Positions 28,792-48,083 of a DNA stretch of 64,000 nt are shown here, one piece after another (position 1 is the first letter of the stretch; the number at the start of each line of letters is the position of its first letter). This DNA is from Pseudovirgaria hyperparasitica. Taxonomy: Eukaryota. Below the pieces are notes generated by a model. It was given only the letters and a program-made list of their open reading frames with translations, was not told where the DNA came from and ran no database searches. The position numbers and the translations under genes are program-made. The stretch lies in NCBI GenBank assembly GCA_010093815.1, contig ML996566.1. One strand, written 5' to 3'.

Positions 28792-30292
28792 TATGGTGTG
28801 CTGAGTGCATGTCGATGATGGTATTATTGGACCTGAGCATGTCGAAACTATACTGACCGACTGAATGTGTTCACTGATCAGCGCTGAACTGGCCGATGCA
28901 ATTGCAACGGATAGACTTCTCTCTATGCCTCTTAGAATCAGCGTTGGGCAATGACTGCACGGACGGAATGGTCCACTTATTACAATCTCAGTTTATACAA
29001 CAAGTCGTGCTATCTCTCCTTGTTCGTATATGTCACTCCAACTATCAAGCCCCCATCAGATTCCCCCAATGTCTCTCCATTCGCTGCCCCTGATAAGCTT
29101 ACGTTTTTGCTCCGAAACTATGCTTGCTATATCACAAGTCTACAGATAATAGACTATTTAGTTCCGTACAGTACAGATGTCGTGGCACTTTATTGCGCGT
29201 TGTTGCCTTGTCGGCTTGGTTCCCTGTTTATGCTACGCTCTGGTTTAGCTCCAGAGCCAGGTAGAAAGTTGTGCATTATTTGTTCTCATACTCAGGGGAC
29301 ATGAAAGAGGATGAAAGCTATGTCGGAGACCGTTGGCCTTGAATCCGGGTTCAAAAGGGGGAGTTACACTCGCAATAAATATGATTGATGGGTAAGGAGA
29401 CTTCGAAGGTTTGTTGAAGATCAAAGGTCAAGTCATTAGTTCTAGGATCCCTGTGATTAGATCAAGAATCCACAGGACCACTCTTGAAAGCAAAACCGTA
29501 TCCGAATGAATCTCTTCCCGAGCGGCCCACAGCATATCTTTCCACACTGTTACATATGAAAACTCACATTTCCAACTCACAGAACGCACTGATCTATCGC
29601 ATCTAAAGAGACCTCATGACGCTCCCTTCCAAGACGACGTTCTATACCGTGGTCAGTGCTTTTCAATTGCGTTCTTCACACATGCCCGAGAGAATGTTGA
29701 CGGTGCGACGCCCGTGCTGTTCAAGAGGTCATTGTTCGGGAGACGAAATACAATTCCTTGGAATTATAAACGTAGCTCAGCGTAGGATGTGTCTGGTTGC
29801 TGTTTGCTAAGGAATTGGAGGTGCAGGCTTGATTACCTTGAGTTGTGATGGTGGGAATAGCATGTTGTTTCCGCTGTATGCTTTATGGGGACACGATAAT
29901 AGCACGGCTACAGCTCTATGCGAGATGTTGGATGAGTAGCTTCTTCACATACTCATAAGAGAACGTAATTACGGCGGTTAGACGTATCTCCTAGTCATTG
30001 TATAGTATCTCGCTGCGCGGGTTTGTGCACCTACCCTGGTTACACCGTCGCAAAGTTTGTATCGAGAAAATCGGCATAACGAGATGATATGAGGGAACCC
30101 ATAGACAATTGAAAAAAAAATGATGACTGATTTCAATGGTACGAAACCCCCTGAGCCCGCGGCCTCGCAACATGGCCGCATGGTAGGCAGCGGTTATAAA
30201 TGCTCAGCCTCGGTGGCAACTCTGCTAGAACTATTTAAACCACAGCCGCCCTCGAAAGTCTCTTTCTTTCCTTCTTTCCTTCTTTCCTCTCA

Positions 30293-30845
30293 AAATCACC
30301 TTCGTTAAAATCATCTTTGTGGAAATCATCTTCGGGCAAATTATCTTTGTATAAATCACCTTCGTGCAAACCATCCTCGAGTAAACTATCTTCGTGCGAA
30401 TCACCTTCGTGTAAATCACCTTCGTGTAAATCACCTTCCTGTAAACCATCTTCGAGTAAACCACCCTCGAGTAAACCATCTTCGTGCAAACCATTCTCGA
30501 TTAAACTATCTTCGTGCAAACCATCCTCGATTAAACTATCTTCGTGCAAACCATCTTCGATTAAACTATCTTCGTGCAAACCATCCTCGATTAAACCATC
30601 TTCGTGTAAACCATCTTCGTGTAAACCATCTTCGTGTAAACCATCTTCGTGTAAACCACCCTCGTGTAAACCACGAGTAAATCATCCTCGATTAAACGAC
30701 CTTCGTGTAAATCACCTTCGAGCAAGCCATCTTCGTGTGAACCTTCTTCGTGCGTACACTATCTTCGAGTAAGCCATCTTCGAATAAACCAGCTTCGAGT
30801 AAATCATCTTCGTGCATACCATCTCCGAGTAAACCATCTTCGAGC
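30293..30845. repeat. 15-bp minisatellite, about 36 units, consensus AAACCATCTTCGTGT / AAACCATCCTCGAGT
   Basis: Directly visible tandem array; one 17-nt and one 11-nt unit break the period. Confidence 0.95.
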
Positions 30846-30882
30846 AACCCTCCCATAGAAACGTGACTTCGTTATACTAGTC

Positions 30883-33120
30883 ATGGAAGAATCTTCATCA
30901 CAACCCTCAAAATCGAGCCAAAAGAGCAATCAGCCTACACAGGGTGTCTTCCCCACGCCAGATAATACTACGTTCCATGCCACGAAGCCTTACAAGGCCC
31001 TTGATCGATCAAGGAAGGAGACTCGACTACTCAGAGTTGATATCCGCAGCAGCGAGTTGACTGAATTAGAGTGCGAGCTGGTACAGAACGTATCGCTCTA
31101 TGACTGGGATGGGAAATACATTGCGCTTTCCTACTCAGCTGGTTCGGCTTCCAATACTTGTGATATTATCGTAGACGACATTAGATTCCAGGCATTTGCC
31201 AACCTTGAACATGCACTGAGGCAAGTTTGCACCTACTGGAAGGCGAGTCAGGATTATGAGGCTACAAAGGGGCTGTTGGTCTGGGCGGATCAAGTTTGCA
31301 TCAATCAGTATGATTATATAGAGAAAGGTCATCAAGTTGGTACGATGACGGACATCTATCACTTGGCCGAACGAGTGGTCATCTGCCTATCGGCCGCCGA
31401 TAGAGATCCATTGTCGGAGGACACAAGATGGCCACGTACTTGGGACGACGAGGAAGCCAAAACGAGCTTTTATGTGGCGAATGAGGGCATTCAATGGATG
31501 ATGAAAGTGGGACTAGATGTTCCTGTGGCACAATATCACGCACAAAGTGGATCACAAGCCCTGACATTGGACCAGCTCAAAGCAAGCATGTTCAGAGACA
31601 TCGACATTGATAACATCCGTAGACTCGATTCTATCCCCAACTTCATGGATCATCAAAGACTATTAGCATACTGGGATGAACATGTGACAAGGACCACTCA
31701 CAATGCACCACCTTTCGGTCTCTGGGATTTGTTGGAGATTTTAAGAAGTTCTTGGTGGAGTAGAGCATGGGTTACGCAGGAGTTTCTCACCGCAAAACGA
31801 GCGGACTTTATTTTCCAGAATCATTCCTTCTCGTGGGAACGTCATCTACATATATTTTGCCCACCGGTCGAGGTATTACGACAGGTTACAGCCTATGATA
31901 GCGAACTCTATCATAAGTACAAGAACTTCGAAGCAACAGGATGCATGGATGACAATCGGGATTTACGTAGCGTGCATCTCACTTGCGTTACGAAATTGCT
32001 ATGGGACCAGAGGAACAAAGCGGATTTGAAGCAATTTTTGGTCCAGTCATGGCGCTGCAAGGCATCTGATCAGCGAGACTTGGTCTATGCTTTTCTTGGG
32101 CTGTCTCGAGATATCACTATTGAGCCGAATTATTCGCCACAGAACAGCCTATCAGCTGTACTTACAACAACAGCAAAAGACATAATCACAGCTGGGAATA
32201 GCTTAGACTTCCTCCATTATGCCCCCCAAACCTCTTGGTTCATCGAATGGCACTTGCCTGGCCCGCATTTACGATTCGATCATTTCGATGGCACATCGAT
32301 TCCAAGGGGTACACGGATACCAAAGTCTACTCCCAACTGTTACGGATGTAATAGATTCATTGATCTCCACTATTACATCTGTGTGACTTGTACGGACTAC
32401 ACCGTATGTAAATGGTGCATGCCTTTAAATGTTTGCTTTAGAGACAAACACCATGAATTCTTATCAAGTGTTGTACCATGGCGTCAGGTTATGAATTTCC
32501 CGATCCCGTCGTGGGCATTCAACTGTACGGAATACCAGCACAGACAATTGAGCTACAGTCGAAAGTTCGAAAGCAAGGAGACCGGTGGGAGTAAAGCAGA
32601 TGCATCTTTCAAGTTTCACCGTCTCAGAGCATATCCTAGCGCGTTTCCAGCCATGGAGGTATTGGGCATGCTAATAGCTCCGCTATTTGACTCTCAATCT
32701 GGGCAGTGGAACCTAAGACTCCGTTTTGATAATAGCCAGTATGAGAAATTCAAGGATATCAACGGGCCATGTTCTCGGGACGGTGAGATGAATCCGTATG
32801 CGGGTAAACGTAAACGACCACGGAGTGATCCACTCTGGTATTGGCCGGCTGAGCTCAAGCCGAACAAATCCACGGCAGACGATCACCTGTTCGAGATTAA
32901 ATCATGCCGCCTGATCGAGAAGAGTGACCAAATGTGGTTGCTTTATGGGTCAGGAGCTCCATTTATTCTGCGGAAGATCGAGGATGTATACCATCTTGTT
33001 GCATCTGTGGAAGTTATACGCGAAAACAAAGACGGCTCGTTCTCTCCACATCCTTCCATCAAGCTGTTGGGGCCGGAGTGGCATGAAAACCCAGTAAGGA
33101 GACGTATTACGTTGATCTAG
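30883..33120 (+). CDS. HET-domain (heterokaryon incompatibility, HET-6-like) protein with inserted ZZ-type zinc finger
   Basis: YIALSYSAG, NLEHALR, WADQVCINQ..EKGHQVGTMTDIY..AERV, WWSRAWVTQE, ASDQRDLVYAFLGL, IPSWA; CYGC..CVTC.DYTVCKWC..HH at 32338-32460. Confidence 0.92.
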   Translation: MEESSSQPSKSSQKSNQPTQGVFPTPDNTTFHATKPYKALDRSRKETRLLRVDIRSSELTELECELVQNVSLYDWDGKYIALSYSAGSASNTCDIIVDDIRFQAFANLEHALRQVCTYWKASQDYEATKGLLVWADQVCINQYDYIEKGHQVGTMTDIYHLAERVVICLSAADRDPLSEDTRWPRTWDDEEAKTSFYVANEGIQWMMKVGLDVPVAQYHAQSGSQALTLDQLKASMFRDIDIDNIRRLDSIPNFMDHQRLLAYWDEHVTRTTHNAPPFGLWDLLEILRSSWWSRAWVTQEFLTAKRADFIFQNHSFSWERHLHIFCPPVEVLRQVTAYDSELYHKYKNFEATGCMDDNRDLRSVHLTCVTKLLWDQRNKADLKQFLVQSWRCKASDQRDLVYAFLGLSRDITIEPNYSPQNSLSAVLTTTAKDIITAGNSLDFLHYAPQTSWFIEWHLPGPHLRFDHFDGTSIPRGTRIPKSTPNCYGCNRFIDLHYYICVTCTDYTVCKWCMPLNVCFRDKHHEFLSSVVPWRQVMNFPIPSWAFNCTEYQHRQLSYSRKFESKETGGSKADASFKFHRLRAYPSAFPAMEVLGMLIAPLFDSQSGQWNLRLRFDNSQYEKFKDINGPCSRDGEMNPYAGKRKRPRSDPLWYWPAELKPNKSTADDHLFEIKSCRLIEKSDQMWLLYGSGAPFILRKIEDVYHLVASVEVIRENKDGSFSPHPSIKLLGPEWHENPVRRRITLI

Positions 33121-33359
33121 CATGAACGATATATAGTAGACTGAGTCGGCTGCAGTTGGATGTAAGAGAATGCGGTATAGATCATTGGAATTCTAATCTT
33201 CCATACTTATAAGGCTATCAAGACGCCATTTCCCCTATCTATGTCTATAAGCTCTAGTTGTTAACGCCATATAAAAAATATCATCAATTACCCCTAACCT
33301 TGGTCTTCTTCAGTCTAGGTCGGCGTACTGCTACGCTCATCGCACACGAAGCTCCGCCG

Positions 33360-35777
33360 TCAGCACGTTCCAGATGCGTTGCTCGAGACCTGTGGATTCA
33401 TGATTGTTGTTCCATCGCTCGTGAGTAGATGATGGCATTTGGTGCGCAAGATCTCGCCATAACTGCCCCAGTACTTATGTGCTCGAACATCGGCCTCATC
33501 CTTTATGACACCGTGACCAAGAGTCACGCACCACATACCTTGGACAAGTGCATTGTGAGCGCTTGGCTCACCGTCCTCCTCCAGTAGAAGGGAGTAGATC
33601 ACGCCCGTATACGCATCAATCTCGCACCCGGAGTCTTCATGTGGAAATATCCACTTGCTCTGGCTTTGCTCGCCAAAGTATGCAATAGGATGCCAAGGAG
33701 TGATAAGTAGGCCAGAATTCCGGTATCTGCGGATCTTTATCTTCTCAACAGGAGTGGGGACAATACCCTTGACCTCACGGAAGCCAGCTTGCGTGCGTAC
33801 GCGGTCACCAACTTCAAGCGAAGAAGTAGGAATGGCGCCTCTTTTCTCGGTCTCGATCGTACATTGCCCAGCCCAGCAAGACCTATCCAGCTGATTCAAC
33901 TCGGACATGAACTTGAGTTTCCCTGGCCCCTTATACCTTCCATAAAACGTATCAAATTCTTGCTTACAGTCCAGGAACAGCGGCGATCTGATTCCATAGC
34001 GTAGGGGGCCTGCATCTTTGAACGTGTTTCGGCGTTGCATGGCGTGTGCGAAGAGCATAGATCGCATAAAGTGCGCGCCCCAGCGTTTGTACTCTAGCTC
34101 TTGTTCGATGCCTCTTTCAGTGGCTACGTTAATGGATGTTTCGATGGCTTCCCAGAGCTGACTTCCGTCTTTGACATCGAGTAAAATGCTTTGATTGTCA
34201 GGATCAGAATGATTGCGAGATTCAATGAGGCGCGCGAGTTGAGCTCGTCTCTTCCGAATATCGACTAGGTGTAACATCTCCTCCTCGACATGCCACGGAC
34301 TCGCACTGGGACGACAAATGTCTTGGATTAGGGCGCACAACCGCCCCCGGTAATCATGGTAGTATTCCTCTGTCTCGGTGGCAGGTTCTAATTTTGAGAG
34401 GTCGTATGTAACGATGAGCTCTTGAGGAGATCCGTTGTGGGATAAACAAGACGTGTAGCGTAACTTGATCTGAATGGAACCTTGAGTAGGACGCTGCGCA
34501 TATCGGAAGATGAAGTCTCGCGATTGTCCATACTGTAGACTCCCGAGGTGTAGGGTCGTACTCGTATTGTAGGAGGCTATCGTATCCTCTCCATTCGTTC
34601 CCAGGAGGTCTGTGGGGCAGCGTAGGACAGCGCAGCCGGGCGGCAGAACCATCGAGAGTTCAGTGTTAGTAGCAAATGATGACATAACGTTAGATACTGC
34701 ACTGCTGAAAACGTTGCAGGCATTATTGAGGTCCGAAATGTAGGCAAAGCTTCCTTTTCCTATGTTTGCAAGGAGATGCAGAAGTCCCGAATCAACGTGC
34801 TGTCCAAATCCGATAGTGTGGAGAGTTGGCGAGAACTTGTTATTCTTGCGACTTTTGCAGAGGATCTCTTTGATCGAGCTCTCTCAAGAACTTGGATTCT
34901 CCTCATTTGCTACGCCGTCTGTCAAGACAAAGATGACCTTCACGGCGTTCCTGTCCATCTCGGGTTCTTCATCGTAGAGACCATAACCAGCTTTAATCCC
35001 ACCAAAAAGGTTTGTGCGTCCGTTGGCCATGATCTTGTCCACTTCCTCCTTGATTGCTTGTTTTTTTTCCCTGGTAGCCCGTACCAAGGACTGTTTTATT
35101 TTAACTTCGGAAGAAAACGTGACGATACCGATTCGATCATTATCTCCGAGCATATCTACGATTGATTTGGCGGCGGTTTTAATGACACGCTTGGGTTTGC
35201 AGGATTGCGGTTTGCCAATTAGTTCGCCGGGTCCTGATCTCCTGTCCAGTTTGTAGGATCTTGTTCCTGCGGGGGAATTCTGTTCCCACTTAGGTATCTT
35301 GGCTGGTAACTGCATGCTCTCGGAACTATCCAATACTAGTACGATATCACATGGTACGTGATTTATGTCGATCTTCGGCTTCTTTGGCGGTAGAACTGAG
35401 ACTAGTATACCATCATGGTGGACAAGGGAGTGTGCTTTGATACGAAGATCCATAGCGCTGGGTTGGATGGTTGCAGCATGATTCTGTTCCACCGACGACA
35501 GAAGTTGAGATGCTTGGATAAGCCGCGATTCTACGTCGATATCTCGTCGAATGACTTCCATGTAGAGCTCGTCATCACCAAGCTCCGTATCAGGGGTAAA
35601 TCGGCCGTTAACAAAGTCATATTCATCATCAGACATCGCATCGGATTCTGGATTATGAATCTTTCGTCGAGAAACTATTTCTTTGTCTTTTCTACGTTGC
35701 TCTTGTGCATACTCGTCCGGTGCTTCATAGGTGTAGTGTGAACGGTAATTCATACCTGCAGGGTTCAGTCGTTCCAT
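33360..35777 (-). pseudogene. vWA + Vwaint + Vint (Hint-domain) gene, one continuous frame interrupted by a single TGA at 34886-34884
   Basis: MIDAS DIVLVLDSSESM..TNL..VLTDG; after the stop, HTIGFG..DSGLL..LA..GKGSFAYI; RWGAHFMRS..AH..Q..NTFKDAG; Hint SCWAG..GDRV..ITPWHPI..CVTLGHG..AH.YWG. Confidence 0.8.
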
Positions 35778-36579
35778 CTGCAGCGTGGTGGTGACTTAAC
35801 ACGTCGGTTTGGAAGCTTGATGCGGGAGGATTTTGCGACTTTGTTTGATGTAGGAAGCGGATGCTGTTGAATCTGAAATGTGTCGTTGGTCAAATGCTCC
35901 CTTATATAGCGACGTCAGAGTGGCAGTGAAATACAATGCTGTTGCCTGTGAGTGCATATTTGCTTCACAATGCTCTCCTGTGGCAATTGGGTGAGATACG
36001 CCTCACTGCGCCAGTATTACACTACAAAGCTTGTTTCAATCTTAGGTCCTGAGTAGTATCTCCGCAACGTGAATGATGTATTTGTGTATCATGAAAGACA
36101 TCGACAGAAAAGAGCCTGAGCAATCTTTGAAACGTGCTCGATGTCGGCTTGTCAAATTTACGTCTCCGTGGTAAATGATAGTCTTGAGCATTCCAGGAAT
36201 ATCCAGTGGCATGTTCGAAGCATTGTTTAGAGACATAGGGATGGGTCTCTAGCCTGCAAGGCACAACTGGGTAGCGGCGAATGAAAGCACACGCCTTCGC
36301 TGCTCACAGGGGGGACGTTTAGACATTTTTCAAGCACTTTCGTTGGTCCAAGCCTTGTTGAACGATCATATTTTTGAATGCGCCATATTACCTGGCAGCC
36401 TTTAGTGGTTGAGGGTGTGTCGTTGATGCCTGCGGTACCTCAAGCGCTCCGCTTAACGCTACCACCAACCACAGCCACAGCACAGCCACAAATCTTTGTT
36501 AGGGACTAATTAGGGTTCACAAGTTCAATTCGTGATATTGTTTTTGCCAACTTGGCAAAAACAAAAACGATACATCAAC

Positions 36580-37548
<969 letters not shown>

Positions 37549-37699
37549 GGCATATTGTACATTGCAGGCTCATTGGGCTCACCCTGTGCAACCATGTACA
37601 GCCAAATATGCCAAGACAAATGCAAAATACGGGTATATGCCAAACGCCGATACTTCTATGACACAAAGCAACCAAGCACAGGTTTCGACCGAGACATGT

Positions 37700-38620
37700 T
37701 CATTCGTCGATTCCAGCCCATTCTTCCTCATCGCTCTCCACTGCCAACTCAGCCCCGGAAGATGATGGCTTCTCCTGACCAGTGCCATTCCAGTCTTGTA
37801 GTCTCTCGTCCTCCAAAGCCTCTTTCACACGTTCACGCACTGGTTTCGTCGGGCTCTTTGTGCCGAGTTCCTTCAGCGGCTCCAGCATTGTATTTAGTGG
37901 CATGTGCCCTTGCCTTTCCTCATCAACCCTGTCCAATTCGTCAATAAATATATCCGCAACGTGTAGTCGTAGTCCATTCGGTATTTTGCTGTCGTAGATA
38001 TTCAACGGCGTTGTTTGGAGGACCTCCGCGTGTGCGGTGATGTCGGAAGTGTTCTTCCAATTGTCATGCGAGAGAAATTTGAAGGAGGTATGGAGGTAGC
38101 GGCGTATGAGGAGTAGGAACTTGTCCATGCTAAGGAGGTGCGGTTTAGCGAAGTCCTATCCTGCAAACCGCTCTGTGGGAACAAGAGAAAGACATACCGT
38201 AACCGATCTATCTCACTCCACTGTGCCGCCATTGTTTTCCAGAATGCACTTAGGAAAGGCAGTACCGTCTCGTGTGGTAGTATGTCAACAAGGCTTGCAA
38301 GATCGTTGGCTAGACGTTGCTGCACCGGTCGCTTATCGCTCATCCACATGCCTTCAATCATCAGCGCCAGGGCAAGTGCGCATCGGAATGGCACACTAAC
38401 AGTAAAAGAGTCCTTTCCAAAGCTTCAAGAGCTCAATATCGTTCAGCCCTTTCCGGGATCCGAGATATACTCTTAGACTCTGTAGTGCCTCATCGCGGGC
38501 ATGTCGGTCTGCAGATAAGAATAATGGTCAGCAAGTGACTCGTGCGAGGTATCATAGAATCGACGAACCGCTCGATGCGAGTTGCTTTACGAATGGACTG
38601 CTTTGCGCTTTTAGATCCAT
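37700..38620 (-). CDS. RRP1: rRNA processing protein Rrp1/Nop52, 4 exons
   Basis: PFVKQLASS, ELLKLWKGLFY, WMSDKRPVQQRLA, QWSEIDRLRMDKFLLLIRRYL, PNGLRLHVADIFIDEL. Confidence 0.93.
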
Positions 38621-38693
38621 ATGTGAAAGTTGTTCTCGAAGTTTTCTGAAAGTGAAGTAGTTTCTGCTCTGTGCAAATACCATAAAAGAAAAA

Positions 38694-38706
38694 CGTTATC
38701 GATAAG
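38694..38706. promoter_or_regulatory. Palindromic TTATCGATAA motif upstream of RRP1
   Basis: CGTTATCGATAAG 74 bp from the RRP1 ATG; the same 12-mer lies upstream of PUF6. Confidence 0.6.
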
Positions 38707-38724
38707 ACAGTGACAGCAGCAAGG

Positions 38725-39257
38725 TTTAGCTAAATACACTATATTGTTATATTTCCTACTAGTAATATAGCTTATACATTATAAATATAATATAGAATAC
38801 TCTAATTAGAATAGAAGACGGGATTTTACTTTTTCTTCTATCCTTATTAGTTAAAAGAATAATTATCTATTTATTCTAGTTATATTTTACTTAGTAAGCT
38901 AGAATACCTCGGACTATCGTCGGGTATTATAGCTAGCGCTAAGTAGATCTATAAGTTCTAAGAGTAGTTCTATAGTTCTTCTCTATCTAAAAAGGTAGTA
39001 AATTTTCTAGGGAAAAGATACTATCTTCATTTAACTTTCTAAGGTTATATAGTAAGTTTTACTTTCTTTCTTTACTATCTTATCTTTCTTTTAGAGTTTA
39101 TTATTAATATTAAAGTCTAGAATAAGAAAAATAACCTTAGAAGCTAGAAAGAAGTATGTTATCTAGTTCTACCTTTACTTATACTAATAATTCCTTATAT
39201 ATATGTTATCTTAGTAAGTAACACTAACTAGAAGGTTTATATAGATGCGTAAGTATA
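38725..39257. repeat. AT-rich island with repeat-induced point mutation (RIP) signature
   Basis: Roughly 25% GC by hand count, versus about 50% in flanks; only about 5 CpA/TpG in 38761-39240 with very abundant TpA; sharp borders. Confidence 0.88.
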
Positions 39258-40898
39258 ATGAGCCTTTACCAACACGGCAATCAAGGTCAGGAACACGCGA
39301 TAGTACGCGAAGCAAACAACCACCGAGAAAATTCCGGATATCAAAGGTAGATCCTATCTAATTGCTACGAATATTGAATCCCTATAGAATACTAACTCTG
39401 CCATCTGCTAGATACATAGTATCGTTTCATACCGGAGTAATCCATTTACTGAGGTAGGCACAACAGTAATGACGTCATTGGTTGGCTCAGAACTCTGATT
39501 TGACCAGGAATCGGAGTATCTGCTTCGGTGGATCACACCGAAGAATGCATGGGCACAAGAACACCCGCCATTATCATGGCATACGCTGGAACAACTGTCG
39601 TCGTGTCTCAGCATATTACAGGACTATCTACAGCGCCAAGTCGACATTCAATCGGCTAGCAGTAGAAAAATCTCGCCTACCGCAGAATTGCATCACAGCG
39701 TCGCGATTTACAATGGAGAGTTTGTAGAAATATCTGAACAGGTACACTGTATATCATCTCAGGTAATTGTCGCCCGCTGTCCTAATGTATTTCGCAAGCT
39801 GATACCAGGCCGAAGTCACCTGATGTGTCCACTTTAGAATTGAGGAATATTCCCCCTCCACAAGAACTCACAATACTCCATCGTCGACAAGCGGAATTGG
39901 CAATCAGGGCAGAGTTTCAACGCCGTCTCAAGCAGATCCGAGGCCCACCAATTACGATCAGTAACACGGTAGATGCGACAACACCGTCCCTAAAGTTTGA
40001 ATTCATAGAAGAATACAAGATTCGGCCCGGTGTCCATCGCGCAGATGAAGCGACTATAACAGGTTGCCAAAGCTGTTCGCCCAAGATGGGTAGAGGTATC
40101 GGGTGCGAATACACTAAGAAGTGTGAATGCCTGGAATACGCCCTCGTCAACGAGAAGAACTTGGACGATAAGCAGCGGGAGTTATATGCAAAGATCCAGG
40201 AAACGCGTGAGGGTAGCACAATGGGCATGCCGAAGAAGTTTCCTTACTATGTTACTGGATCGTACAGGAACGGGTGCCTCGTTAGCTTCTATTTAGACAG
40301 TCGACACCCGATTTATGAATGTAATCAGAACTGTGCCTGCGGCCCGGGTTGCAAAAATCGTAAAGTTCAACATGGTCGCAAGGTGCGCCTAGAGATCTTC
40401 AAGACGGAGACTCGGGGCTGGGGGTTACGGGCTCTAGAAAAGCTGGTTCGCGGTACTTTCATCGATACATACCGTGGAGAGGTCATCACGGATAAAGTAG
40501 CCTCGGCGCGCGAAGCGAAAGGAGACCGATCGAAAGCGAGCTATCTATATGAACTAGACAAGTTCAAAGAAAGCCAAGGCATCCCTCAAGAAGATATATA
40601 TGTTGTAGATGGGCAATTCTTCAGTGGGCCGACCCGTTTCATGAATCACTCTTGCGAGCCGAATTGCAAGCAGTACACGGTCTCTTACAATAAGCATGAT
40701 TATCGCATATACGACATCGCTCTCTTTGCGTATAGAGATATTGAGCCTCTCGAAGAGCTCACATTCGACTACCAAGACAAAGACGAGGAGGAAGAAGAAG
40801 ACGATGAAATGGACATCGAATTCTCACAGGCAGAGTCTGAAGAGAAAGTTCCCTGCAACTGTGGTGCAAAGAAGTGCAGGAAGTGGTTGTGGATCTAA
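39245..40898 (+). CDS. dim-5: Histone H3K9 methyltransferase (DIM-5/Clr4/SUV39 type) with degenerate N-terminal chromodomain; 5' exon structure approximate
   Basis: Pre-SET Cys cluster (GC..C..C..CECL, IYECN..CAC...C.N), SET RGWGLR, YRGEVI, SYLYELD, RFMNHSCEPN, ELTFDY, post-SET CNCG..KCRKWLW. Upstream exons 39245-39346, 39412-39453 and 39508-~39762. Confidence 0.92.
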
Positions 40899-42281
40899 GC
40901 AATATGAGTGACCTACTCTTATCAGCAGGGACTGCGAATGTGTCAATAGGTTCGAGGAAGAACGCTAAGAGGAAGTATGCTCGGAGGAAGAATCCAAGCC
41001 CAGATCTTGGCTTTCAAACGTGGACAAGATATAGCACGATTGGGATCGGTCCGATAACTTCCTGTCATCTCAGGTCAGTCGGCAAAGTGCGTGTCGTCCA
41101 GCATGTTTAGCCTTCTTCGCAAACCCGAATGTTAGCTGACGCCTGATCGTCTTACGGATGCATCCAAACTATGAATCCACGTACCACGTGCACACTGCAT
41201 CTTGATTTGCGCAGCAGTCAGCATGCTTCTGATTCAGGGTGAAGGGGGCTACCGGGAAGCAGTTATAGGTAATCAATATTGCTATAGATTCTATGTTACT
41301 GTGGAACATACCTGCAGTCGTCTTTCAAAGAGCAACGATACAGTCACGGACTTGTAAATACTTCACTCATAGATTATCTATAAATTTATGTGTCGTATAA
41401 GTATCCCCATCATGGCCTACAAGAACCTCGATGAGGATCAGGCAAACAACCTGATGTGATGTCGTATATCGCGAGAGGCCAGGGGAGTAGGGTCCTAGAT
41501 CCCCATGCTCTACCTAAAAAATTATGCTAATAGCTTCGACCGCAATACGTCTGAAGATTGTCGATCTTCTAATACAGCGTTTTTGTGACGAACTATCAAG
41601 AGATACAGGCCAAGAAAATTTCGCATGAGAATGTTATTCGGTCGAAATAGTAACCTCCCTAGGAGGGGCAAAGACATACTCAATTGGAAAAAGCAAATAT
41701 GCACACCTTTATAAGAGACTTGCGATAGTATACATAGGCGCATACTGTTTGAATAGTACAGAATCATAAACCCACAGAAAGGGAAATAAGATTCGAAGAA
41801 GCGATCACAATGCAGCTGCGGAAGAGCTTCATTGCTTGATACTCGCTTTAGTCTCAGAGTATTATCAACCAACACAAAGAAAGTCTTCCAAGACTGTTAC
41901 GTGAATGTGTCTGTTATTGATACCCCATCTTATTTGCCATATGCTCCAAGCCACTTTCAAAATGCGTTCTAAAGCACCGTAACACCAAGACGCCCGGATC
42001 TACCAGGAGTCATGTTGCTGACACCTCCGCGTGTGCTTTCCGTGCCCTGAATTCATATATATGCAGAGTTCCCTCCACTGGTGTAAATGGTGTAGAGTCT
42101 GGACAATGATGCCTGCCTCAGAAGGACAGTTCTATACACCTCGCGATTACAAACAATAACTTATCTACCCATAGTGTTGCACCCGAGAAGCTTGATATAT
42201 GCCCTTCCGTCTATCCAGAGTCCTCAACTCAACATAGGGCCGCCGGATCAAAACAATATCGCTATCTCGGTTGACCTCAAA

Positions 42282-43885
42282 ATGAAAGTCGAAGTCAAGT
42301 CCAGAGACATGAAACCTTAAAATGCGATCAAGGACAAAGAGGGCGTTGACACGCTGAACTTTTCCGGAGCTTGCGGGAAGTCTAGTCCAGCTGAGATCAC
42401 CCTGGTCAGAAAACTGGATCTCTGAATTATGCCTGCCTTCTGCCTTACGTACTGGCTGAGCTTTCTCGTGAGCCCCTGTCCATCACTTTCCAAATTACCG
42501 ACTACTGACTCAAAACCAAGACCACAATGCCATTGATCTCGCAGGGCTCAATACTCTGGGTGAGGACCTGGATCTAGCAGACTCCCGGAAGTTAGGAAAC
42601 TTAGATCATCGAGTGTACGCTGATGCATCAGGACACTGGCTCGTGTGTCTATCCGTTTGATAGCTTATACACTAGGCTAAGTTCCTTCCAATTTATTCTT
42701 TACACGTAAGAAGCCAGGCCATCATATGGCTGGCTGTATAGCACTTGACGCTGTGGTCTCAGAAGTGACTACACTTGCCCAAGACTACGAGTGTCCCCTC
42801 CTATGCGTTTCTCCCTTGGTGTGACTGAAGCACTATATTACCACAGAGCTTTTTGCGTGCTTTCGATATTATATACTTGCAAGGAGATTGCGACCAGAAT
42901 GTTGATCTTATATACCAGCTATACCTATGCAATCGTATTCACGGGCTTGATCGCTGGGGATTTATGAAAGTGTTGAGCAAGTTGCCGTAATAGCTACGAG
43001 GCAAAGGCTTTTCATGTCACATCGTGGTGTAATGTTCGTAATCGCAATGATTCAGCATCTAATCTCCCTGATGACCCACTGATCAATCATTCGCTCACAC
43101 CAGATGAAAAGCTGAGGACAGCTGCAGTAGAAGTTAGGGATCAGATTGTGATTTCAGATGATGGAATCTGAGTAGCAGATCGTTCTGGGATAGATGATGT
43201 ACAGGAGGAGGTTACAGTCATTGTTGTTGTGACGGTAGGGTTAGATTTTAGGCGCTAGACTATCTCAAGACGCTGAGATATACTTCTGACCATGGGTCGT
43301 GTTTGGGACCTCGGATCTGCGAGCTATCAAAGAAAACCTGATGGCGCTGCTAGTGTAAGTCGAATGGATTGGACGTGGGATTCATATTATCTGCAGCACT
43401 ACGCCTGGGTGTCATGCGGCAAGGCTCTTGGTGGGACAATGTCCGAGAAAACGGGGCAGATCAGAACCCTATTTCATGAAGGAAGGTGTGGCAGACCCGC
43501 TGAGTGGTCACAAGGCATGGTTTGAGAGTGTGTGAGCAATTGCCTGGTATGCATTCGGTAAAGTTGAGAAGACTGGGTTTAGGCCAGAGGAGAAATTTTT
43601 GCTTTAAGGAGAAGGAATCTAGGAGCTTAGAAGCTATAGATACTATTACTAACGTAATTAATCTACTGGGCATGTGTATCAGAGTCTTGTCTGCATAATG
43701 CACTGCTTAGAAAGAAGGATGACATTTGCTTACACCGTCAAGAGGTTTGGACACCTGCTCCAGGATACTGAATGCTATGGTTCTTCCGATACTCGACAGC
43801 AAGATACGTGGCAATCTGCGGACTGCAGATCGAAGCAATGTCTAACAAAGAATCACGAACCTCTAACAGCACCATTTGGGGTGTA
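42282..43885 (+). pseudogene. Decayed MFS transporter (allantoate permease/ACS family) pseudogene; 3' end approximate
   Basis: Recognisable fragments LVRKLDL*IMP..YWLSFL|DHNAI..LGEDLDL, CVSI..YTLG*VPSN, RFSLGVTEALYYP, LSILYTCKEIATR, GLIAG, PDDPL..LTPDEK, with multiple stops and frameshifts. Confidence 0.8.
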
Positions 43886-44429
43886 GGAGGACTATGTGAA
43901 AGGTCTCATCATGCGATTGTCCCCAGGGATGTTTCCATTGTTCGATCTTCAGATACTGATAACCAATACATGCATTGACTATTCTGAAGAAATTGCCAAA
44001 CTATATACATAGTGTCATACGCTCATAGGTGAGTATACTTTCGACATTCTGTAGTGATTATACTCACCATCAAACGACACAGTCCCCTTGTGACAATGGA
44101 GATGCTGGCACCACTCCTCTTTAGACTTGGAGAGCCATGAGAGTGGCAGTGTCGTTTGAGATCGCATAGTTGTATGAGACGAAGCGGTGAGTACTGGTTT
44201 GCACTGGCATAGTCATGAATCTGGCTTTGGAAGTGGGCGGATCCAGTTCACAATGAACTTGCTGCATCCTTTGCCTTGGTAGCGCGCCCCTTGTCAGGAG
44301 AGACTGGAGGTTGTCGTATCCCCACCGTTATGTCGAGAAACAGGCTGTAGCGACGGTCATCCTTTGGTTCCAAGTAGGCTGGTCTTCTGACTGCAGTAGA
44401 CGCAAGATATCTGCGCGCATACAACCGCT

Positions 44430-44840
44430 TCAAAATGCCCGTCCAATCTCCGAAGGATGTCCCCCATACCGCGAGTCATCGTGATCCGAAACAGCCTTGA
44501 CCGAAACTATACTTATATCTTTCTCTCCATAGATGCCTAGCGCTTCGTCCCCTATCATGGTCAGATCTCTCGACTCCTTCTTCTGCTTCGACAAGATGAC
44601 GATGAATGCGACAACAATGGCCACGACAGCTACAGCCAGTCCGACTCCGAGTCCGATGTATAGCTCTGTGGAGAAATGTATTCCGCCGGATGGGTCAGCT
44701 GTGACTGGTTGTGGTGGTGCGACTCTTGGAAGATTCTCCACCTGGGCGTTGTTGCGTGCTATTACGGTTGACTTGTAGACAGTGGTCTCGAATAGTCCTC
44801 GCATGTTGTTGTGTGCGAACCACTGTGCGCAGGGAGGCAT
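44430..44840 (-). CDS. Small single-pass membrane protein, unknown function
   Basis: 136-aa ORF with one strong TM (YIGLGVGLAVAVVAIVVAFIVIL) followed by a basic stop-transfer (SKQKK). Confidence 0.55.
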   Translation of the reverse strand: MPPCAQWFAHNNMRGLFETTVYKSTVIARNNAQVENLPRVAPPQPVTADPSGGIHFSTELYIGLGVGLAVAVVAIVVAFIVILSKQKKESRDLTMIGDEALGIYGEKDISIVSVKAVSDHDDSRYGGHPSEIGRAF

Positions 44841-45663
44841 TTTCTTTCAACTGCTCTTCCCTAAACGATTGTGTTATGTTTTTGTTGATGCCTTCTCAGT
44901 TGTTAGCGAGAAGCCAGTACGTCCGTCAATCACAAGAGATGGATCCCTGTGGAGTGAGACATACTGTGAAAAGAGTGACGATACTGAGACCAGCTGTTTT
45001 TCAAAGCCTTGTAACATGAGGGAATAAGAAGCAGACAATCGAAATGCACAAGCGATTCCTATACAATTTGATCTCTACGAAAAGACCCTTACACGTGCCA
45101 TTCGCGCAGCGTTGTGGGGATCCTAGCCCAGCCATCGATAACAGGATCAATTTCCCGAAAAATTGTCGCAGTCATTGGCCCGAATGCTATGATCGACATA
45201 TTAGAAAACAACATAATGGATTAGTATCCATTGATCTAAAGATGCCCCTGCACTAACTGCCGTACCGGCATGTACGACGGTTGCACTAGAGTCTCGGCGC
45301 ACGACATGATCTACGTGGGTCGATTGAAAGGAATAGAGCCGACTCGTAGTGTTGTAACCTGCAATAGCTTCGGATACAAGAGAGATTATTTGAAATGTGA
45401 GGATCAGGTTTAGAATTTACTGAGCTCGCAAGGCTTCCTATATTCCCTGAAAGGGCGAGCGAATGATTTCAATAAGCGCGCATAAGAACGGAGATTATAG
45501 GACAATAGTGTGCATTTCGGACTATTATATGGGAGCTGAGTAACGGTATAGACAGCTATTTGACAGAACAGAATAGTTTGAGCGTACATTGTGTAAGCAT
45601 GCGAAATATCGAAGAATAACATGCAAGTGGAATAGCTCCACGAAGCCCTGAATAATCCAAGTC

Positions 45664-46585
45664 TCATGGAAGCCCTCGTCCAGTGTTGATTGCATCTGCA
45701 AGTTGACTAGTGTTTGGTCTGTTCTCGGCGTATCTTTCATAGCTGTCTAGATATAGATCATCGGTACTGGTCGTTGCTTGAACAGCTTTATGATGCTCGA
45801 TAGCATCAACCCATCTAGCATATCGAGTTCCAGGCTCTGGGTCTGGCCAACCTCGATATGGACTCAGCACTCGCCTCATTCGTATGACCCATGGGGCAAC
45901 CTGTACATCGACAAAAGAGATCTCAGGGCCCAGGAAAAAAGGGCCATGCTGATCAGCGGCGTCGACCAAAGTTATGACTGTTTCTTTGAATTCTTTGGCG
46001 TATTGAATCTGCTTCTCACCATCTTGCTCCTGAAGGTAGCGGTAGAAAGCTGGTATAATCTTACTATGGACGTGTAAAGTCCAAAGTCTCGAATGCGCTT
46101 TCTGCTGGGGTGTGCTCGGAAGAAGAGGCGTCCCTTGGCCTAGGTCCTCGAGATATTCCATAATGATGGCGCTGTCGTTAATCGACCACTCTGGGCCATG
46201 GCGGATAGCTGGTACTAGCCCTTTGGGACTAATATCGAGTAATGATTGTGGCTTCTTATACGGATCAACCTCAATATACTGGTATGGCACACGCTTAATT
46301 TCCAATGCGATCCATGCTCGTTGTACAAAGGGGCTGTCGCATATCAGCAAGTGACACTCGGAGGCTGTGAAATGGATACCGAAGAGGGAGAAACACGCAG
46401 CCCCTTGTAATGATACGTAATAGATGAACAAATCGCGTAAAGAAAAGGGTGAGATACCAAAAGCAAGCGCCATATAGCTTCAGCGCAGTTTCTGAGGAGT
46501 GCGACTGGACCGTACTCAAAGCCTCCCCGGTTGCTTTCTGAGCATATGTCTTCTTCTGCTGCATGCCATGATTAGCGTCAGACAT
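45664..46585 (-). CDS. Glutathione transferase, Cys-containing (omega-like), 265 aa; exons 46585-46458 and 46333-45664
   Basis: LYGACFC-PFVQRAWIALE, PKGLVPAI, DSAIIMEYLED, GPFFLG.EISFVDVQVAPW. Confidence 0.92.
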
Positions 46586-46770
46586 ATTGCGGATCAGTGT
46601 GCGAAGTGTGATTGTAATGTCACAATAGCTTTGGATAGACCTGGCAAGCAAAATAGGAAAACGAACTGAGCCGAGAAGCCGGGCAGCGAAGAACGGGGTG
46701 AGCTATTTCGTAAAGCGTTCACATTGGGTTCGCACAAGTTCCCTTGTCAGAGCTCGGTAAAGGCTCGGAA

Positions 46771-46778
46771 TGACGTCA
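46771..46778. promoter_or_regulatory. Perfect CRE/ATF palindrome TGACGTCA about 190 bp upstream of the GST ATG
   Basis: Sequence match only; flanked by two GCTCGG repeats. Confidence 0.45.
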
Positions 46779-46989
46779 AACCAAGCTCTTGACTACTGAA
46801 CTCTGGAAATGCTATCCCTGATTCCTATCGGCAATAGGAAACTGGTGTTGCACTCTTGGAAAGGGTTTACACTATCTTCAGGAGAAAAAAAATCACTATG
46901 TGACGGCCTCTGGAGAACACAAGACCTGTATTCGATACACGAATACGATAGAGCGCCGTATGGTTCAGGACAATTGCGCAGACACTTAC

Positions 46990-48083
46990 ATGAGTGGATC
47001 TCCTAGACTTTCCATTCTTTGATACGAGTAACCTGAAGACTGAGTTTTTCTTGATTCGATCACTCTCTTCAATCGAATGTTTGTGAGGTCCAGGTACACT
47101 ATCAGTATTCCCATTCTCCTTCTTACCGTTGATTCTTTGTATAGAGAACCATTTTGATACTGAAGTGTCTTGTGGACCATATACGGGCGATGGCGTCATC
47201 CATATGCCGGTGTGAGATTGAACCAAGCCAGGAAATGCACTTGCCATATCACGTGACACTGTTTGGTGCCCCAGACATTTGTGCTGCTGTTCTAGTTCTT
47301 GAGGAATAGTTCCTCGATCATACTCCACGATTTTGATCTTCACGCCACACAAATCTCTTTCTCTGGCTACACGCCTGCGTTTCTTTCTGGCCGGATCCAG
47401 GGATTTGGCCGTACCAGGCGGGCGTCCTTTCAATCGACAATTCCAGTAGTGAGACACAAACGGCTTCAGTTTGTATGTTTGAGTTGAACGGTGAGAATAT
47501 ACATTGTCGACATGAGGGAAATACGTTTGAAACCTGAGAATAGAATGAGCCATCCCAGTCAGTTCCCAGTGGTGTACACATACTCGTCCTCAGTGAGGAA
47601 AATAGGCTCATCAACATTAAACAATCTCTCGCGCCAAGTCTGCAGATCCGGTGGATTTTCAATAAGCTTCATTGGGCTTTCAAATTTGAGTTGATATGTC
47701 TCGATCTCATCTAGCTGAGGAGTCTCAGCCAGAGCTTGCACTTGATGAACATTACTGTTAGATACTGGATGAGAATGGTGGTGCATAGAAGTCTGTATTC
47801 GTGGACTTATAGACGACGGTTGCGGTATATGGCTCGCGACAGATGAGAAGGTAGGTATTTGTTCAGCGGGTTGCAGGTGGTCGGTCTGATAGAAGGTTGG
47901 ACGTGCTGCAAGGCCATGACTTTTAGAAGCACTGGCTGAGTGTTGTGGGAGCTTGAAGGTTTCTGCAAGAATGCATGGATTGTACTGCTGCTGTTGCTGT
48001 GCGGGTTGCTGATGGAGCTGCTGGTACACAGCTGAGTGCAGAGTAATCGAAGAACCAAGAAGATTAGATGTATCCGTATCCAT
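46990..48083 (-). CDS. Q-rich protein with WRKY/GCM1-like Zn-finger (C..C..HxH); probably the 5' exons of a fusion with the GST (exons 48083-47584, 47533-46990)
   Basis: LTEDEFQTYFPHVDNVYSHRST..HYWNCRLKGRPPGT..RKKRRR..RERDLCGVKIKIVEY..WFSIQRING..HKHSIEESD; perfect GTAAGT donor at 46989. Confidence 0.8.

Follow-up and report, generated by a model that had tools for sequence, protein, structure and literature searches.

The gene encoding a Clr4/DIM-5/SUV39-type H3K9 methyltransferase in Pseudovirgaria hyperparasitica begins its transcript inside a RIP-type AT island of 533 nt (positions 38725-39257), the only block of such composition in the window, i.e. the whole 64 kb stretch of DNA analysed here. 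It forms part of the control region of a heterochromatin-pathway gene, as the mRNA begins in it and two UTR exons fall within its limits. An element of this kind was retained at the same gene across lineages, being RIP-like in 16 of the 27 lineages that could be evaluated and AT-rich only in five, against 2 of 15 control stretches. We consider a role of the island in heterochromatin feedback plausible, and we tentatively read it as a native single-copy promoter/5′UTR that may act as a cis sensor of heterochromatin activity.

Composition and limits of the island

The island had a GC content of 0.248, a TpA/ApT ratio of 1.70, a (CpA+TpG)/(ApC+GpT) ratio of 0.16 and a composite RIP index of 1.54, vs 0.50, 0.71, 1.20 and -0.49, respectively, for the entire window. 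RIP-affected DNA is usually recognised by a TpA/ApT ratio above about 0.89, a (CpA+TpG)/(ApC+GpT) ratio below about 1.03 and a positive composite index; the island fell on the RIP side of all these cut-offs, and its GC content dropped relative to the surroundings without preferential loss of CpG. Dinucleotide counts (CpA 4, TpG 4, ApC 21, GpT 28, TpA 107, ApT 63 and CpG 6) revealed an equal loss of CpA and TpG and the retention of CpG, with a CG odds ratio of 0.97 across a wider flagged block of 850 nt (38609-39458). The composition of the island is RIP-type and saturating. Avoidance of upstream ATG codons as the source of the bias was ruled out because CpA and TpG were depleted to a like degree.

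The window was scanned with 300-nt windows (step of 50), which were flagged when the following thresholds were reached: GC content lower than 0.42, TpA/ApT of at least 1.3 and (CpA+TpG)/(ApC+GpT) of at most 0.7. These thresholds were chosen post hoc, with the data already seen. Ten of the 1,275 windows were flagged, all of them contiguous (starts 38651-39101). Among the nine ORF-free stretches of at least 500 nt in the window, that of the island alone was flagged. A block at 5351-5800 also had a high TpA/ApT ratio, but with a GC content of 0.54-0.58 and a substrate index close to 1 it is not RIP-like. The borders of the island were sharp: the second and third introns of the methyltransferase CDS and the introns of the RRP1 gene on the other side (Table 1) had normal CpA/TpG counts. 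Searches for other features of the region returned one chance-level Rfam match (MIR5512, 21 bits vs a gathering score of 139) and no tRNA gene within 30000-48000; internal repeats were limited to weak short ones and a CTTT run.

The flanking genes and the start of transcription

The features of the region are collected in Table 1. The spliced translation of RRP1 was open from its ATG through to the stop, and its N-terminus could be aligned with those of relatives. On the other side, the spliced CDS translates identically to the P. hyperparasitica protein P0001, its best homologue, in which Pfam recognised PF05033 (50.8 bits) and PF00856 (80.1 bits). The domain order was an N-terminal chromo-like region, Pre-SET, SET and post-SET. 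The Pre-SET zinc cluster, the SET domain with NHSC and ELTFDY and the cysteine-rich post-SET of the SUV39/Clr4/DIM-5 proteins were present; NHSCEPNC, ELTFDY and CNCGAKKCRKW were found in the orthologue alignment, with invariant cysteines. An N-terminal chromodomain sets the Clr4/SUV39 type apart from the short DIM-5 type. A Chromo domain was not matched in P0001 by Pfam at E<=1, and residues ~28-75 of this protein align to the orthologue N-termini. In eight orthologues, PF00385 (cut-off of 25.1 bits) scored above the cut-off in two (27.6 and 26.3), below it in four (22.2, 21.1, 15.1 and 14.6 bits) and was unlisted in two. Judging from family membership, the product probably has H3K9-specific methyltransferase activity.

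Table 1 Features of the RRP1-methyltransferase intergenic region and of the two flanking genes
Feature	Position	Strand	Basis or description
RRP1/Nop52 ribosome-biogenesis gene, 247-aa CDS	37700-38620	-	Pfam PF05997 on two ORF pieces
RRP1 introns	38130-38197, 38351-38399	-	RNA-supported, CT..AC joints in RNA contigs
RRP1 intron, predicted	38509-38568	-	GT..AG
RRP1-proximal promoter/5′UTR, normal composition	38621-38724	.	GC 0.38, CpA 6 and TpG 8 per 102 nt
T-run motif GTTTTCTGAAA	38641-38651	.	Counterparts in alignment of relatives
Motif TTATCGATAA	38696-38705	.	Counterparts in alignment of relatives
8-nt direct repeat AAGGTTTA bracketing the island, possible target-site duplication (weakly supported)	38721-38728 (left), 39232-39239 (right)	.	
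Island part 5′ of the first RNA end, presumed core promoter	38725-38998	+	X4 contig begins at 38999
Palindromic 9-mer CTTAGTAAG, copy 1	38890-38898	.	~100 nt upstream of the 5′-most RNA end
5′UTR exon 1, minimum extent	38999-39051	+	X4 contig; 29-nt side of X3 contig
5′UTR intron 1, GT..AG, within the island	39052-39120	+	Joint 39051>39121 in X3 and X4
5′UTR exon 2, 33 nt	39121-39153	+	X3 RNA contig
5′UTR intron 2, GT..AG, last base directly before the ATG	39154-39244	+	Joint 39153>39245 in X3 and X4
Palindromic 9-mer CTTAGTAAG, copy 2, in 5′UTR intron 2	39210-39218	.	Motif scan
Clr4/DIM-5/SUV39-type H3K9 methyltransferase CDS, 493 aa	39245-40898	+	Pfam, RNA joints, orthologue alignment
Methyltransferase CDS introns	39345-39409, 39452-39505, 39761-39813	+	RNA joints

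The run search gave two DNA-type and two RNA-type runs. Transcript data were taken from runs X3 and X4 (one sample), considered as RNA since their contigs were spliced. The spliced contigs place the start of the methyltransferase mRNA within the island, at or before 38999, and no upstream ATG was found in the spliced 5′UTR of 86 nt. Both runs had zero cover across 38510-38998. In the X4 contig, 38999 was preceded by 24 nt matching nothing in the 64 kb stretch, which resemble sequencing adapter. Since transcription of the gene started within the island, the latter cannot have been completely silent in this sample. For comparison, LmDIM5 of the Pleosporales fungus L. maculans has a 5′UTR of 259 bp as determined by RACE (PMC3945186).

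The initial annotation of this DNA, made from the letters alone, had described the island as the sole AT-rich, CpA/TpG-depleted block in 64 kb, which the window scan bears out, and the two RIP ratios that it named as a check agree. It had also placed the island between RRP1 and an H3K9 methyltransferase gene, two genes that Pfam and the start codons confirmed, and had it fill nearly the whole gap between their starts. This gap, between the RRP1 ATG (38620, minus strand) and the methyltransferase ATG (39245, plus strand), measures 624 nt, and 520 of these belong to the island. Finally, its placement at the promoter/5′ end of the methyltransferase gene is supported by the RNA end at 38999 and by the two 5′UTR exons inside the island.

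Recurrence upstream of orthologues

The comparison set comprised 76 metagenome loci, which were grouped into 39 lineage clusters, 27 of them evaluable. A RIP-like AT-rich block lay directly upstream of the orthologue in 16 lineages; five had an AT-rich block without RIP bias and six had neither. The lineages are not independent, as 11 of the 16 positives and the window formed one clade in a quick tree, in which positive lineages were distributed among about 4-6 clades. In 12 of the positive lineages, 77 of 328 upstream windows were flagged vs none of the 2,060 windows from the rest of the locus. When ORF-free stretches were considered, 14 of 23 target stretches were flagged, and the remaining ones yielded 2 of 15 in the loci of relatives and 0 of 8 in the window. 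CpA and TpG were both depleted in the blocks of relatives and CpG was kept, and the k-mers (CTAG up, CCAG/CTGG down) were consistent with CpA>TpA conversion.

The divergent RRP1-methyltransferase pair was widely conserved. In two lineages (L002 and L038), no RRP1 was found within 6 kb upstream, and the block still lay beside the methyltransferase gene. The lowest-GC 300-nt window of the locus fell upstream of the methyltransferase gene in 22 of the 27 lineages, including some without RIP bias. The Pleosporales-like blocks were milder than the island of the window (GC content of 0.36-0.42) and may be too weak for heterochromatin nucleation. In some distant lineages, ORF-free upstream RIP tracts reached 4.6 kb (L038), 2.7 kb (L040) and 1.6 kb (L032).

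The initial annotation had raised the question of whether AT islands recur upstream of dim-5 orthologues, and had named as the contrary case a strain-specific TE scar absent from relatives. With RIP-like blocks in 16 of 27 lineages, the islands do recur, which speaks against such a scar.

Mutation history and motifs

Substitutions were compared in a close pair of lineages (L004 and L015). RIP-type changes accounted for 10 of 60 substitutions in the island vs 25 of 177 outside the intergenic region; ongoing RIP was not seen in this pair, so nothing points to a mutator at work after the two lineages diverged. Polarised counts leaned to decay (TpA>CpA 7 vs 2, and 12 vs 6), but the outgroups had no more than 50-58% identity, which makes these counts unreliable. 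Between families, island sequences showed 50-58% identity and were nearly unalignable, and the dinucleotide bias persisted, which argues for maintenance over an inherited relic.

The 9-mer CTTA[C/G]TAAG occurred twice in 64 kb, both times within the island; a first-order Markov model of the island, simulated 20,000 times, gave a probability of 0.00125 for at least two copies. The core of CTTAGTAAG is also that of a conserved block, GCTTACTAAGC, of the Pleosporales-like islands. The apparent enrichment of the heptamer TTASTAA was gone once composition was modelled (mean of 1.01 expected vs 2 seen), and the 9-mer palindrome alone stands out. On the RRP1 side, the counterparts of the two motifs of Table 1 in the aligned relatives read GTTATCGATAA / GATAGCGATAA and GAAACTTTTCTG; the alignment also showed counterparts of the 5′UTR intron ending close to the ATG. 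That the island might be a RIPed duplicate of adjoining gene DNA was rejected, as RIP-tolerant Smith-Waterman scores (72 and 61) were lower than the shuffle means (83.7 and 70.0). A duplicated partner that could have triggered classical RIP did not turn up among the contigs of the two DNA runs at a likeness of 80% or more, a cut-off that would miss more diverged partners.

A proposed feedback model and its alternatives

Under the sensor reading, the AT- and TpA-rich DNA of the island would attract H3K9me3, plus 5mC where Dim2 exists, like the RIP relics of Neurospora, in which RIP-type AT-rich DNA nucleates DIM-5-dependent H3K9me3 (PMC11381320). A rise in methyltransferase activity would bring more H3K9me3 onto the island and lower transcription, a fall would lead to derepression, and the net outcome would be negative feedback; repression is expected to depend on activity in this way because the transcription start sits inside the island. 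The RIP-like bias of a single-copy region could then be the mutational footprint of a heterochromatic state. As mutator, one could envisage a CpA>TpA activity coupled to heterochromatin/Dim2, of the kind measured in Zymoseptoria tritici, or else the DIM-2/DIM-5 branch of RIP, and CpA>TpA mutation might in turn renew the AT-rich signal.

This model is based on a RIP-type composition that is unique in 64 kb, on an mRNA start and two spliced introns within the island, and on a block that lies directly upstream of the orthologue in most related lineages, follows the methyltransferase gene even when synteny with RRP1 is lost and is seldom met in other non-coding parts of the loci. Because RIP-like blocks recur in relatives, the idea of feedback, which we infer, is strengthened; the 11 of 27 lineages without RIP-like bias count against it, as do expression from within the island, the mildness of the Pleosporales-like blocks and the lack of a RIP-type excess in L004/L015. 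A broader proposal would be that, in Dothideomycetes and some distant Pezizomycotina, the methyltransferase gene is hard-wired to the enzyme that it encodes, with its start in an island of the type targeted by the enzyme and with a heterochromatin-coupled CpA>TpA mutator regenerating the composition, i.e. a self-renewing rheostat of genome-wide heterochromatin dosage. We hold this extension to be doubtful.

The alternative that survives best, though we think it rather unlikely, is a conserved AT-rich promoter/5′UTR without feedback. The RIP-like bias would then be a passive footprint with no regulatory consequence: either a low-complexity region is hit now and then by RIP or Dim2-type mutation, or the traces of an old event are slowly decaying. 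Transcription and correct splicing from inside the island fit such a promoter, as do the absence of a RIP-type excess in L004/L015 and, weakly, the lean of the polarised counts to decay. Moreover, the five lineages with an AT-rich block keep normal dinucleotides, so AT-richness may meet ordinary promoter needs, and the conserved palindromic motif suggests ordinary control by a transcription factor. However, a passive footprint does not agree well with a bias that is almost absent from other non-coding stretches (2 of 15 in relatives and 0 of 8 in the window) and that persists despite the low identity between families. Additionally, the literature consulted describes repeats and 5mC/heterochromatic regions, as opposed to open promoters, as the targets of RIP-type mutators (PMC8016269).

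It is improbable that the island is a lineage-specific transposon relic, i.e. a MITE of ~500 nt, a solo LTR or a fragment that entered the space between the two genes in the Pseudovirgaria lineage, was RIPed and then co-opted as promoter/5′UTR, the blocks of relatives being independent insertions at a permissive site. The sharp edges of the island, the far larger upstream RIP tracts of L038, L040 and L032, and the 8-nt direct repeat that flanks the island are in favour of such an origin; a repeat of 8 nt was reached in 177 of 5,000 shuffles. Against it, methyltransferase residue ~49 lay 997 nt from RRP1 exon 2 in the window vs 1,032-1,234 nt in eight Pleosporales-like lineages (the distance was longer in L023, with 1,425 nt, and L019, with 3,465 nt), and only about 110 nt would remain without the island; this spacing speaks against a net insertion. 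Terminal inverted repeats were not found at the island edges (13 of 40 positions identical), no other contig from the two DNA runs was at least 80% alike, and the island had no RIP-tolerant similarity to adjoining gene DNA. Finally, each of the eight Pleosporales-like lineages had one block of 300-800 nt, whose motifs could be aligned in part, and this fits descent and not repeated insertion.

It is decidedly unlikely that the AT island has some other role in the space shared by the divergent genes, its RIP-like bias being incidental. It might then serve as a replication origin, as a nucleosome-free spacer or as an insulator, the last of which would separate the highly expressed ribosome-biogenesis gene from its neighbour. 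The position of the lowest-GC window, which holds even in lineages without RIP bias, and the wide conservation of the divergent pairing agree with such a role, but it leaves the symmetrical depletion of CpA and TpG with CpG retained unexplained, L002 and L038 keep the block beside the methyltransferase gene without a neighbouring RRP1, and the island holds the transcription start and UTR exons. As for heterochromatin acting as an activator, i.e. a mark on the island that would be needed for methyltransferase expression and would lead to positive feedback or bistability, we regard it as very unlikely, for although Neurospora met-8 offers a precedent (PMC4041435) and expression here comes from within the island, the met-8 region extends over 50 kb beside the promoter, as against a 0.5-kb block holding the start site here, and a silencing enzyme under positive feedback would be unstable.

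Comparison with known systems

The RIP relics of Neurospora have the same composition as the island, i.e. AT-rich, TpA-rich and CpA-poor. They are mostly degraded transposons in gene-poor regions, whereas the island is probably single-copy, measures about 0.5 kb, holds an active transcription start and belongs to one particular gene in many lineages. In 2009, Lewis and colleagues reportedly showed that such relics nucleate DIM-5-dependent H3K9me3 and DNA methylation in Neurospora crassa. In Arabidopsis, the ROS1 promoter element and the heterochromatic intron of IBM1 are repeat- or TE-like control sequences that are substrates of their own pathway, and gene output tracks the activity of this pathway. 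Both belong to plant DNA-methylation pathways, and methylation at ROS1 raises expression of the opposing enzyme; they differ from the present case in that there is no RIP and another enzyme class is regulated.

In fission yeast, H3K9me over clr4+ lowers Clr4 mRNA and protein and buffers excess heterochromatin by negative feedback (Wang, Reddy and Jia 2015, PMC4395908). As proposed here, the target of the mark is the gene of the H3K9 methyltransferase itself. As described there, the feedback is limited to stress (mst2 epe1 double deletion), is absent in wild type, requires the 3′UTR region and involves no AT-rich or RIP-type element (PMC4395908), whereas the candidate described here is hard-wired promoter/5′UTR DNA, recurrent across lineages and known from sequence and transcripts.

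In the Dothideomycete Z. tritici, a functional Dim2 leads to mitotic C>T mutation that is specific to CpA and falls within 5mC regions (Moeller et al. 2021, PMC8016269). The outcome of this 5mC-linked mutator resembles the island, with CA/TG lost, TA gained and CG spared; its targets as described are transposons and sequence repeats, in contrast to the single-copy promoter considered here. Regarding met-8 of Neurospora, the MET-8 protein is lower in heterochromatin mutants, and a 50-kb AT-rich region enriched in H3K9me3 adjoins the promoter and regulates the gene positively (PMC4041435). The likeness lies in a promoter that abuts AT-rich, H3K9me3-marked DNA, with expression depending on that chromatin, but the effect is positive, the gene is metabolic, the 50-kb region lies beside the promoter and there is no feedback logic.

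Significance

How cells set their total heterochromatin is an open question, and the clr4+ feedback of fission yeast is confined to stressed mutants. In the literature searched (full text, subscription journals lying outside the scope), no AT-rich or RIP-type element was described at a dim-5/KMT1/clr4 promoter. Should feedback fail, the recurrent composition of this one promoter would still need explaining. Public H3K9me3 maps exist for some plant-pathogenic Dothideomycetes, among them L. maculans and Z. tritici, which are tractable and in which dosage control would be directly testable; the genetics of DIM5/KMT1 have been published in L. maculans (PMC3945186).

If the sensor reading is true, an evolutionarily retained, DNA-encoded target of H3K9 methylation holding the start of the methyltransferase gene would provide built-in dosage control. 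RIP-type DNA could then persist as a working promoter, and a RIP-like footprint could mark single-copy regulatory DNA, which would affect RIP-index calls of transposon relics. If the rheostat proposal holds as well, the RIP-like footprint on this single-copy promoter would be a fossil record of germ-line heterochromatin at that place.

Data and criteria

Metagenome contigs were searched with a 16-orthologue alignment, yielding 76 loci; grouping these by a 90 % nucleotide identity cut-off gave 39 lineage clusters, of which 12 with less than 600 nt upstream were dropped, leaving 27 evaluable lineages. Lineage phylogeny was assessed on a quick maximum-likelihood tree. Windows of 300 nt were flagged as RIP-like at GC <0.42, TpA/ApT ≥1.3 and a (CpA+TpG)/(ApC+GpT) index ≤0.7. 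These thresholds were picked after data inspection; in the listed positive loci the substrate index reaches lower minima within the block than beyond it, so the pattern does not depend on the cut-offs. Four publicly available sequencing runs from the organism cover the stretch, two of which (X3 and X4, from one sample) gave spliced contigs that were accordingly read as RNA.

Gene context and transcript structure

In Pseudovirgaria hyperparasitica, a Dothideomycete of the order Acrospermales (genome size 35.44 Mbp; PMC12910237), the start site of the H3K9 methyltransferase gene lies in apparently single-copy RIP-type DNA, an arrangement that recurs. Joining the RNA-supported exons gives a translation exactly equal to P0001, a protein that shows the Pre-SET, SET and post-SET hallmarks of SUV39/Clr4/DIM-5 enzymes, so that the initial annotation had placed the ATG correctly at 39245. 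Between the start codons of RRP1 and of the methyltransferase gene lie 624 nt, 520 of them island.

According to the RNA contig exons, from one sample, the methyltransferase mRNA starts within the island, at 38999 or further 5'. In X4, the 24 nt ahead of exon 1 match nothing in the stretch; we take them to resemble sequencing adapter, in which case the cDNA fragment ended there. Both 5'UTR introns are island DNA, and the 86-nt spliced leader holds no upstream ATG. The ~270 nt of island 5' of the RNA end are presumed to be the promoter of this gene.

Features of the RRP1-methyltransferase region
Feature	Position	Strand	Evidence or remark
Nop52/RRP1 gene (247 aa)	CDS 37700-38620	minus	Pfam PF05997
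T-run motif	38641-38651
(T)TATCGATAA motif	38696-38705
AT-rich island	38725-39257
CTTA[C/G]TAAG, first copy	38890-38898
5'UTR exon 1	38999-39051	plus	RNA contigs
5'UTR intron 1	39052-39120	plus	RNA contigs
5'UTR exon 2 (33 nt)	39121-39153	plus	RNA contigs
5'UTR intron 2	39154-39244	plus	RNA contigs
CTTA[C/G]TAAG, second copy	39210-39218
Pre-SET+SET gene	start codon 39245	plus	Pfam; closest database protein P0001, 493 aa, P. hyperparasitica
First coding exon	from 39245, opening exactly at the ATG	plus	RNA contigs

Dothideomycete DIM-5 orthologues (P0002-P0014) are ~500 aa long with a probable N-terminal chromodomain; among eight scanned orthologues, Pfam Chromo was above cut-off in two, below it in four and not listed in two. 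P0001 gave no Chromo hit at E ≤1, and its residues ~28-75 align with the N-termini of the orthologues. The P. hyperparasitica protein is devoid of most of the serine-rich linker (KRKSPD...; columns ~100-180 of the orthologue alignment A1) that sits between the chromo-like region and Pre-SET in the orthologues.

Composition and motifs of the island

The RIP indices computed for the island and for the 64-kb window bore out the annotated AT-rich RIP-type block: GC 0.248 vs 0.50, TpA/ApT 1.70 vs 0.71, (CpA+TpG)/(ApC+GpT) 0.16 vs 1.20 and composite RIP index 1.54 vs -0.49. Raw dinucleotide counts in the island were CpA 4, TpG 4, ApC 21, GpT 28, TpA 107 and CpG 6. Since CpA/TpG depletion is equal on both strands and CpG is spared, the pattern is that of RIP; the same symmetry rules out upstream-ATG avoidance as the source of the bias. 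That the block is the only one of its kind in 64 kb also held, as 10 of 1,275 windows pass the flag, all contiguous and over the island, and the island stretch alone is flagged among nine ORF-free stretches of at least 500 nt. Its borders are sharp: introns 100-550 nt off, in both neighbouring genes, have ordinary CpA/TpG counts. With a (CpA+TpG)/(ApC+GpT) index of 0.04-0.17 in its core, vs 0.49-0.68 in Pleosporales-like blocks, the island is far more extreme. Elsewhere, positions 5351-5800 show TpA/ApT of 2.0-2.8 at GC 0.54-0.58; this region was rejected as RIP because it is GC-rich with a normal substrate index, the ratio reflecting a small-count effect.

The ~100 nt from the RRP1 start codon to the island are of normal composition; relatives have counterparts of two motifs found there, TTATCGATAA and a T-run. 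The T-run and (T)TATCGATAA motifs of this short RRP1-side promoter sit immediately left of the island and have equivalents in the corresponding position in relatives; they may serve as ribosome-biogenesis promoter elements and form a natural boundary. Both copies of the palindromic 9-mer CTTA[C/G]TAAG found in 64 kb are in the island (a first-order model of the island gives P(≥2)=0.00125; the motif was picked after inspection of the alignment). No block of the Pleosporales-like islands is better conserved than the core they share with it, GCTTACTAAGC (L004 5455, L006 5452, L051 5497). The 9-mer contains TTASTAA, the Yap/AP-1-type bZIP site. In Pleosporales-like loci, ATGGTCCGTGC..GCTGATAT is a conserved motif of the intron that directly precedes the chromo-like exon (columns ~1650-1690 of the upstream alignment A2; L004 ~5968-5990; window 39452-39505), of which the upstream island has a look-alike, TAGTCTGTGCGC..TTACTAAGC (GGTCCGTGCG in L007 and L013; A2 columns ~960-1000).

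Recurrence among relatives

In most of the 76 loci, RRP1 is the divergently oriented neighbour 5' of the methyltransferase gene. Of the 27 evaluable lineages, 20 retain the pair (window 37700-40898; L004-L073), among them some whose methyltransferase is only 35-38 % identical to that of the window; Trm8 is found beyond RRP1 in the window, L013 and L029.

AT islands recur upstream of dim-5 orthologues, with RIP-like windows directly 5' of the gene in 16 of 27 lineages. Five others have the locus GC minimum there (0.26-0.34) with normal dinucleotides, and six have neither. Twelve positives have no RIP-like window elsewhere in the locus (77/328 inside vs 0/2,060 outside); the other four (L023, L038, L041, L040) do. 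When 22 representative loci were scored by ORF-free stretch, 14/23 target vs 2/15 other stretches were flagged. Odds ratios in flagged blocks were 0.41-0.88 for CpA and TpG, 1.03-1.46 for TpA and 0.90-1.59 for CpG; CTAG, TCTA and GCTA were enriched and CCAG/CTGG and TGGA reduced, as expected from CpA>TpA conversion.

Eleven of the twelve lineages have a single block of 300-1,150 nt (L055 has two), which ends 75-550 nt 5' of the first match in lineages where that match starts at query residue 31-51. In L002 and L038 the block is retained without RRP1 within 6 kb upstream, so it goes with the methyltransferase gene. One Pleosporales-like lineage (L019/L020, 2535-6001) has a 3.5-kb spacer without a RIP-like block. 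Multi-kilobase RIP tracts 5' of the gene in L038 (1534-6132) and L040 (3188-5909), the Glonium-like and one distant lineage, are possibly transposon remains; L032 also has a large tract.

Several lineages are Pleosporales (their proteins match those of Pyrenophora and Alternaria at ~85 % identity) and one is ~93 % identical to Glonium. On the tree, positives comprise 9 of 10 lineages of the Pleosporales-like clade, the Glonium-like lineage, the L027+L032 clade, the L035/L040/L041 clade and L055, and the window is sister to the clade containing the Pleosporales-like and Glonium-like groups (support 91, not starred). The positives on this tree amount to about 4-6 independent clades, not sixteen.

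Possible function and origin of the island

Neurospora RIP relics reportedly serve as nucleation sites for DIM-5-dependent H3K9me3 (Lewis 2009). Such nucleation is also described in PMC11381320. Functional Dim2 of Z. tritici, also a Dothideomycete, leads to mitotic C>T changes in 5mC regions that hit CpA nearly exclusively and spare CpG (PMC8016269). By analogy, the island may attract the H3K9 methylation mark, rising methyltransferase activity would lower transcription from within it, and a mutator coupled to its chromatin state would keep the DNA AT-rich. We hold these three steps jointly as a tentative reading, somewhat short of an even chance.

The main rival, in which the composition is a footprint that leaves regulation of the gene unaffected, appears rather unlikely. 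In its favour, the L004/L015 pair (93 % identical) shows no RIP-type excess (10/60 island substitutions vs 25/177 outside the intergenic region), which speaks against an active mutator; polarised counts lean to decay, unreliably given outgroups only 50-58 % identical. Yet islands of different families, barely alignable at that identity except for short conserved blocks, each keep the RIP-like bias, which points to a composition upheld by mutation or by selection rather than to the fading trace of one old event.

Evidence for a transposon scar is weak, and a species-specific relic is improbable. An 8-nt direct repeat flanks the island, equalled in 177/5,000 shuffles; against a relic, no terminal inverted repeats were found at the island, and no contig besides the locus itself matched at ≥80 % likeness in two DNA runs. 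RIP-tolerant alignment of the island with adjacent gene DNA found no similarity. Measured between RRP1 exon 2 and methyltransferase residue ~49, the spacing is 997 nt in the window vs 1,032-1,234 nt in eight Pleosporales-like lineages, and it is longer in L023 (1,425 nt) and L019 (3,465 nt); the island thus adds no length. Other roles of the AT island are quite improbable, and activation of the gene by proximal heterochromatin, as at met-8, very much so.

Full-text literature searches brought up no account of a dim-5/KMT1/clr4 promoter bearing an AT-rich or RIP-type element; for L. maculans LmDIM5, PMC3945186 gives only a 259-bp 5'UTR and six introns. In fission yeast, H3K9me on clr4+ reduces Clr4, drawn as negative feedback (PMC4395908). 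Read as a feedback element, the island would be a case of epigenetic feedback in which a gene of the pathway has the pathway's own substrate in its regulatory DNA.
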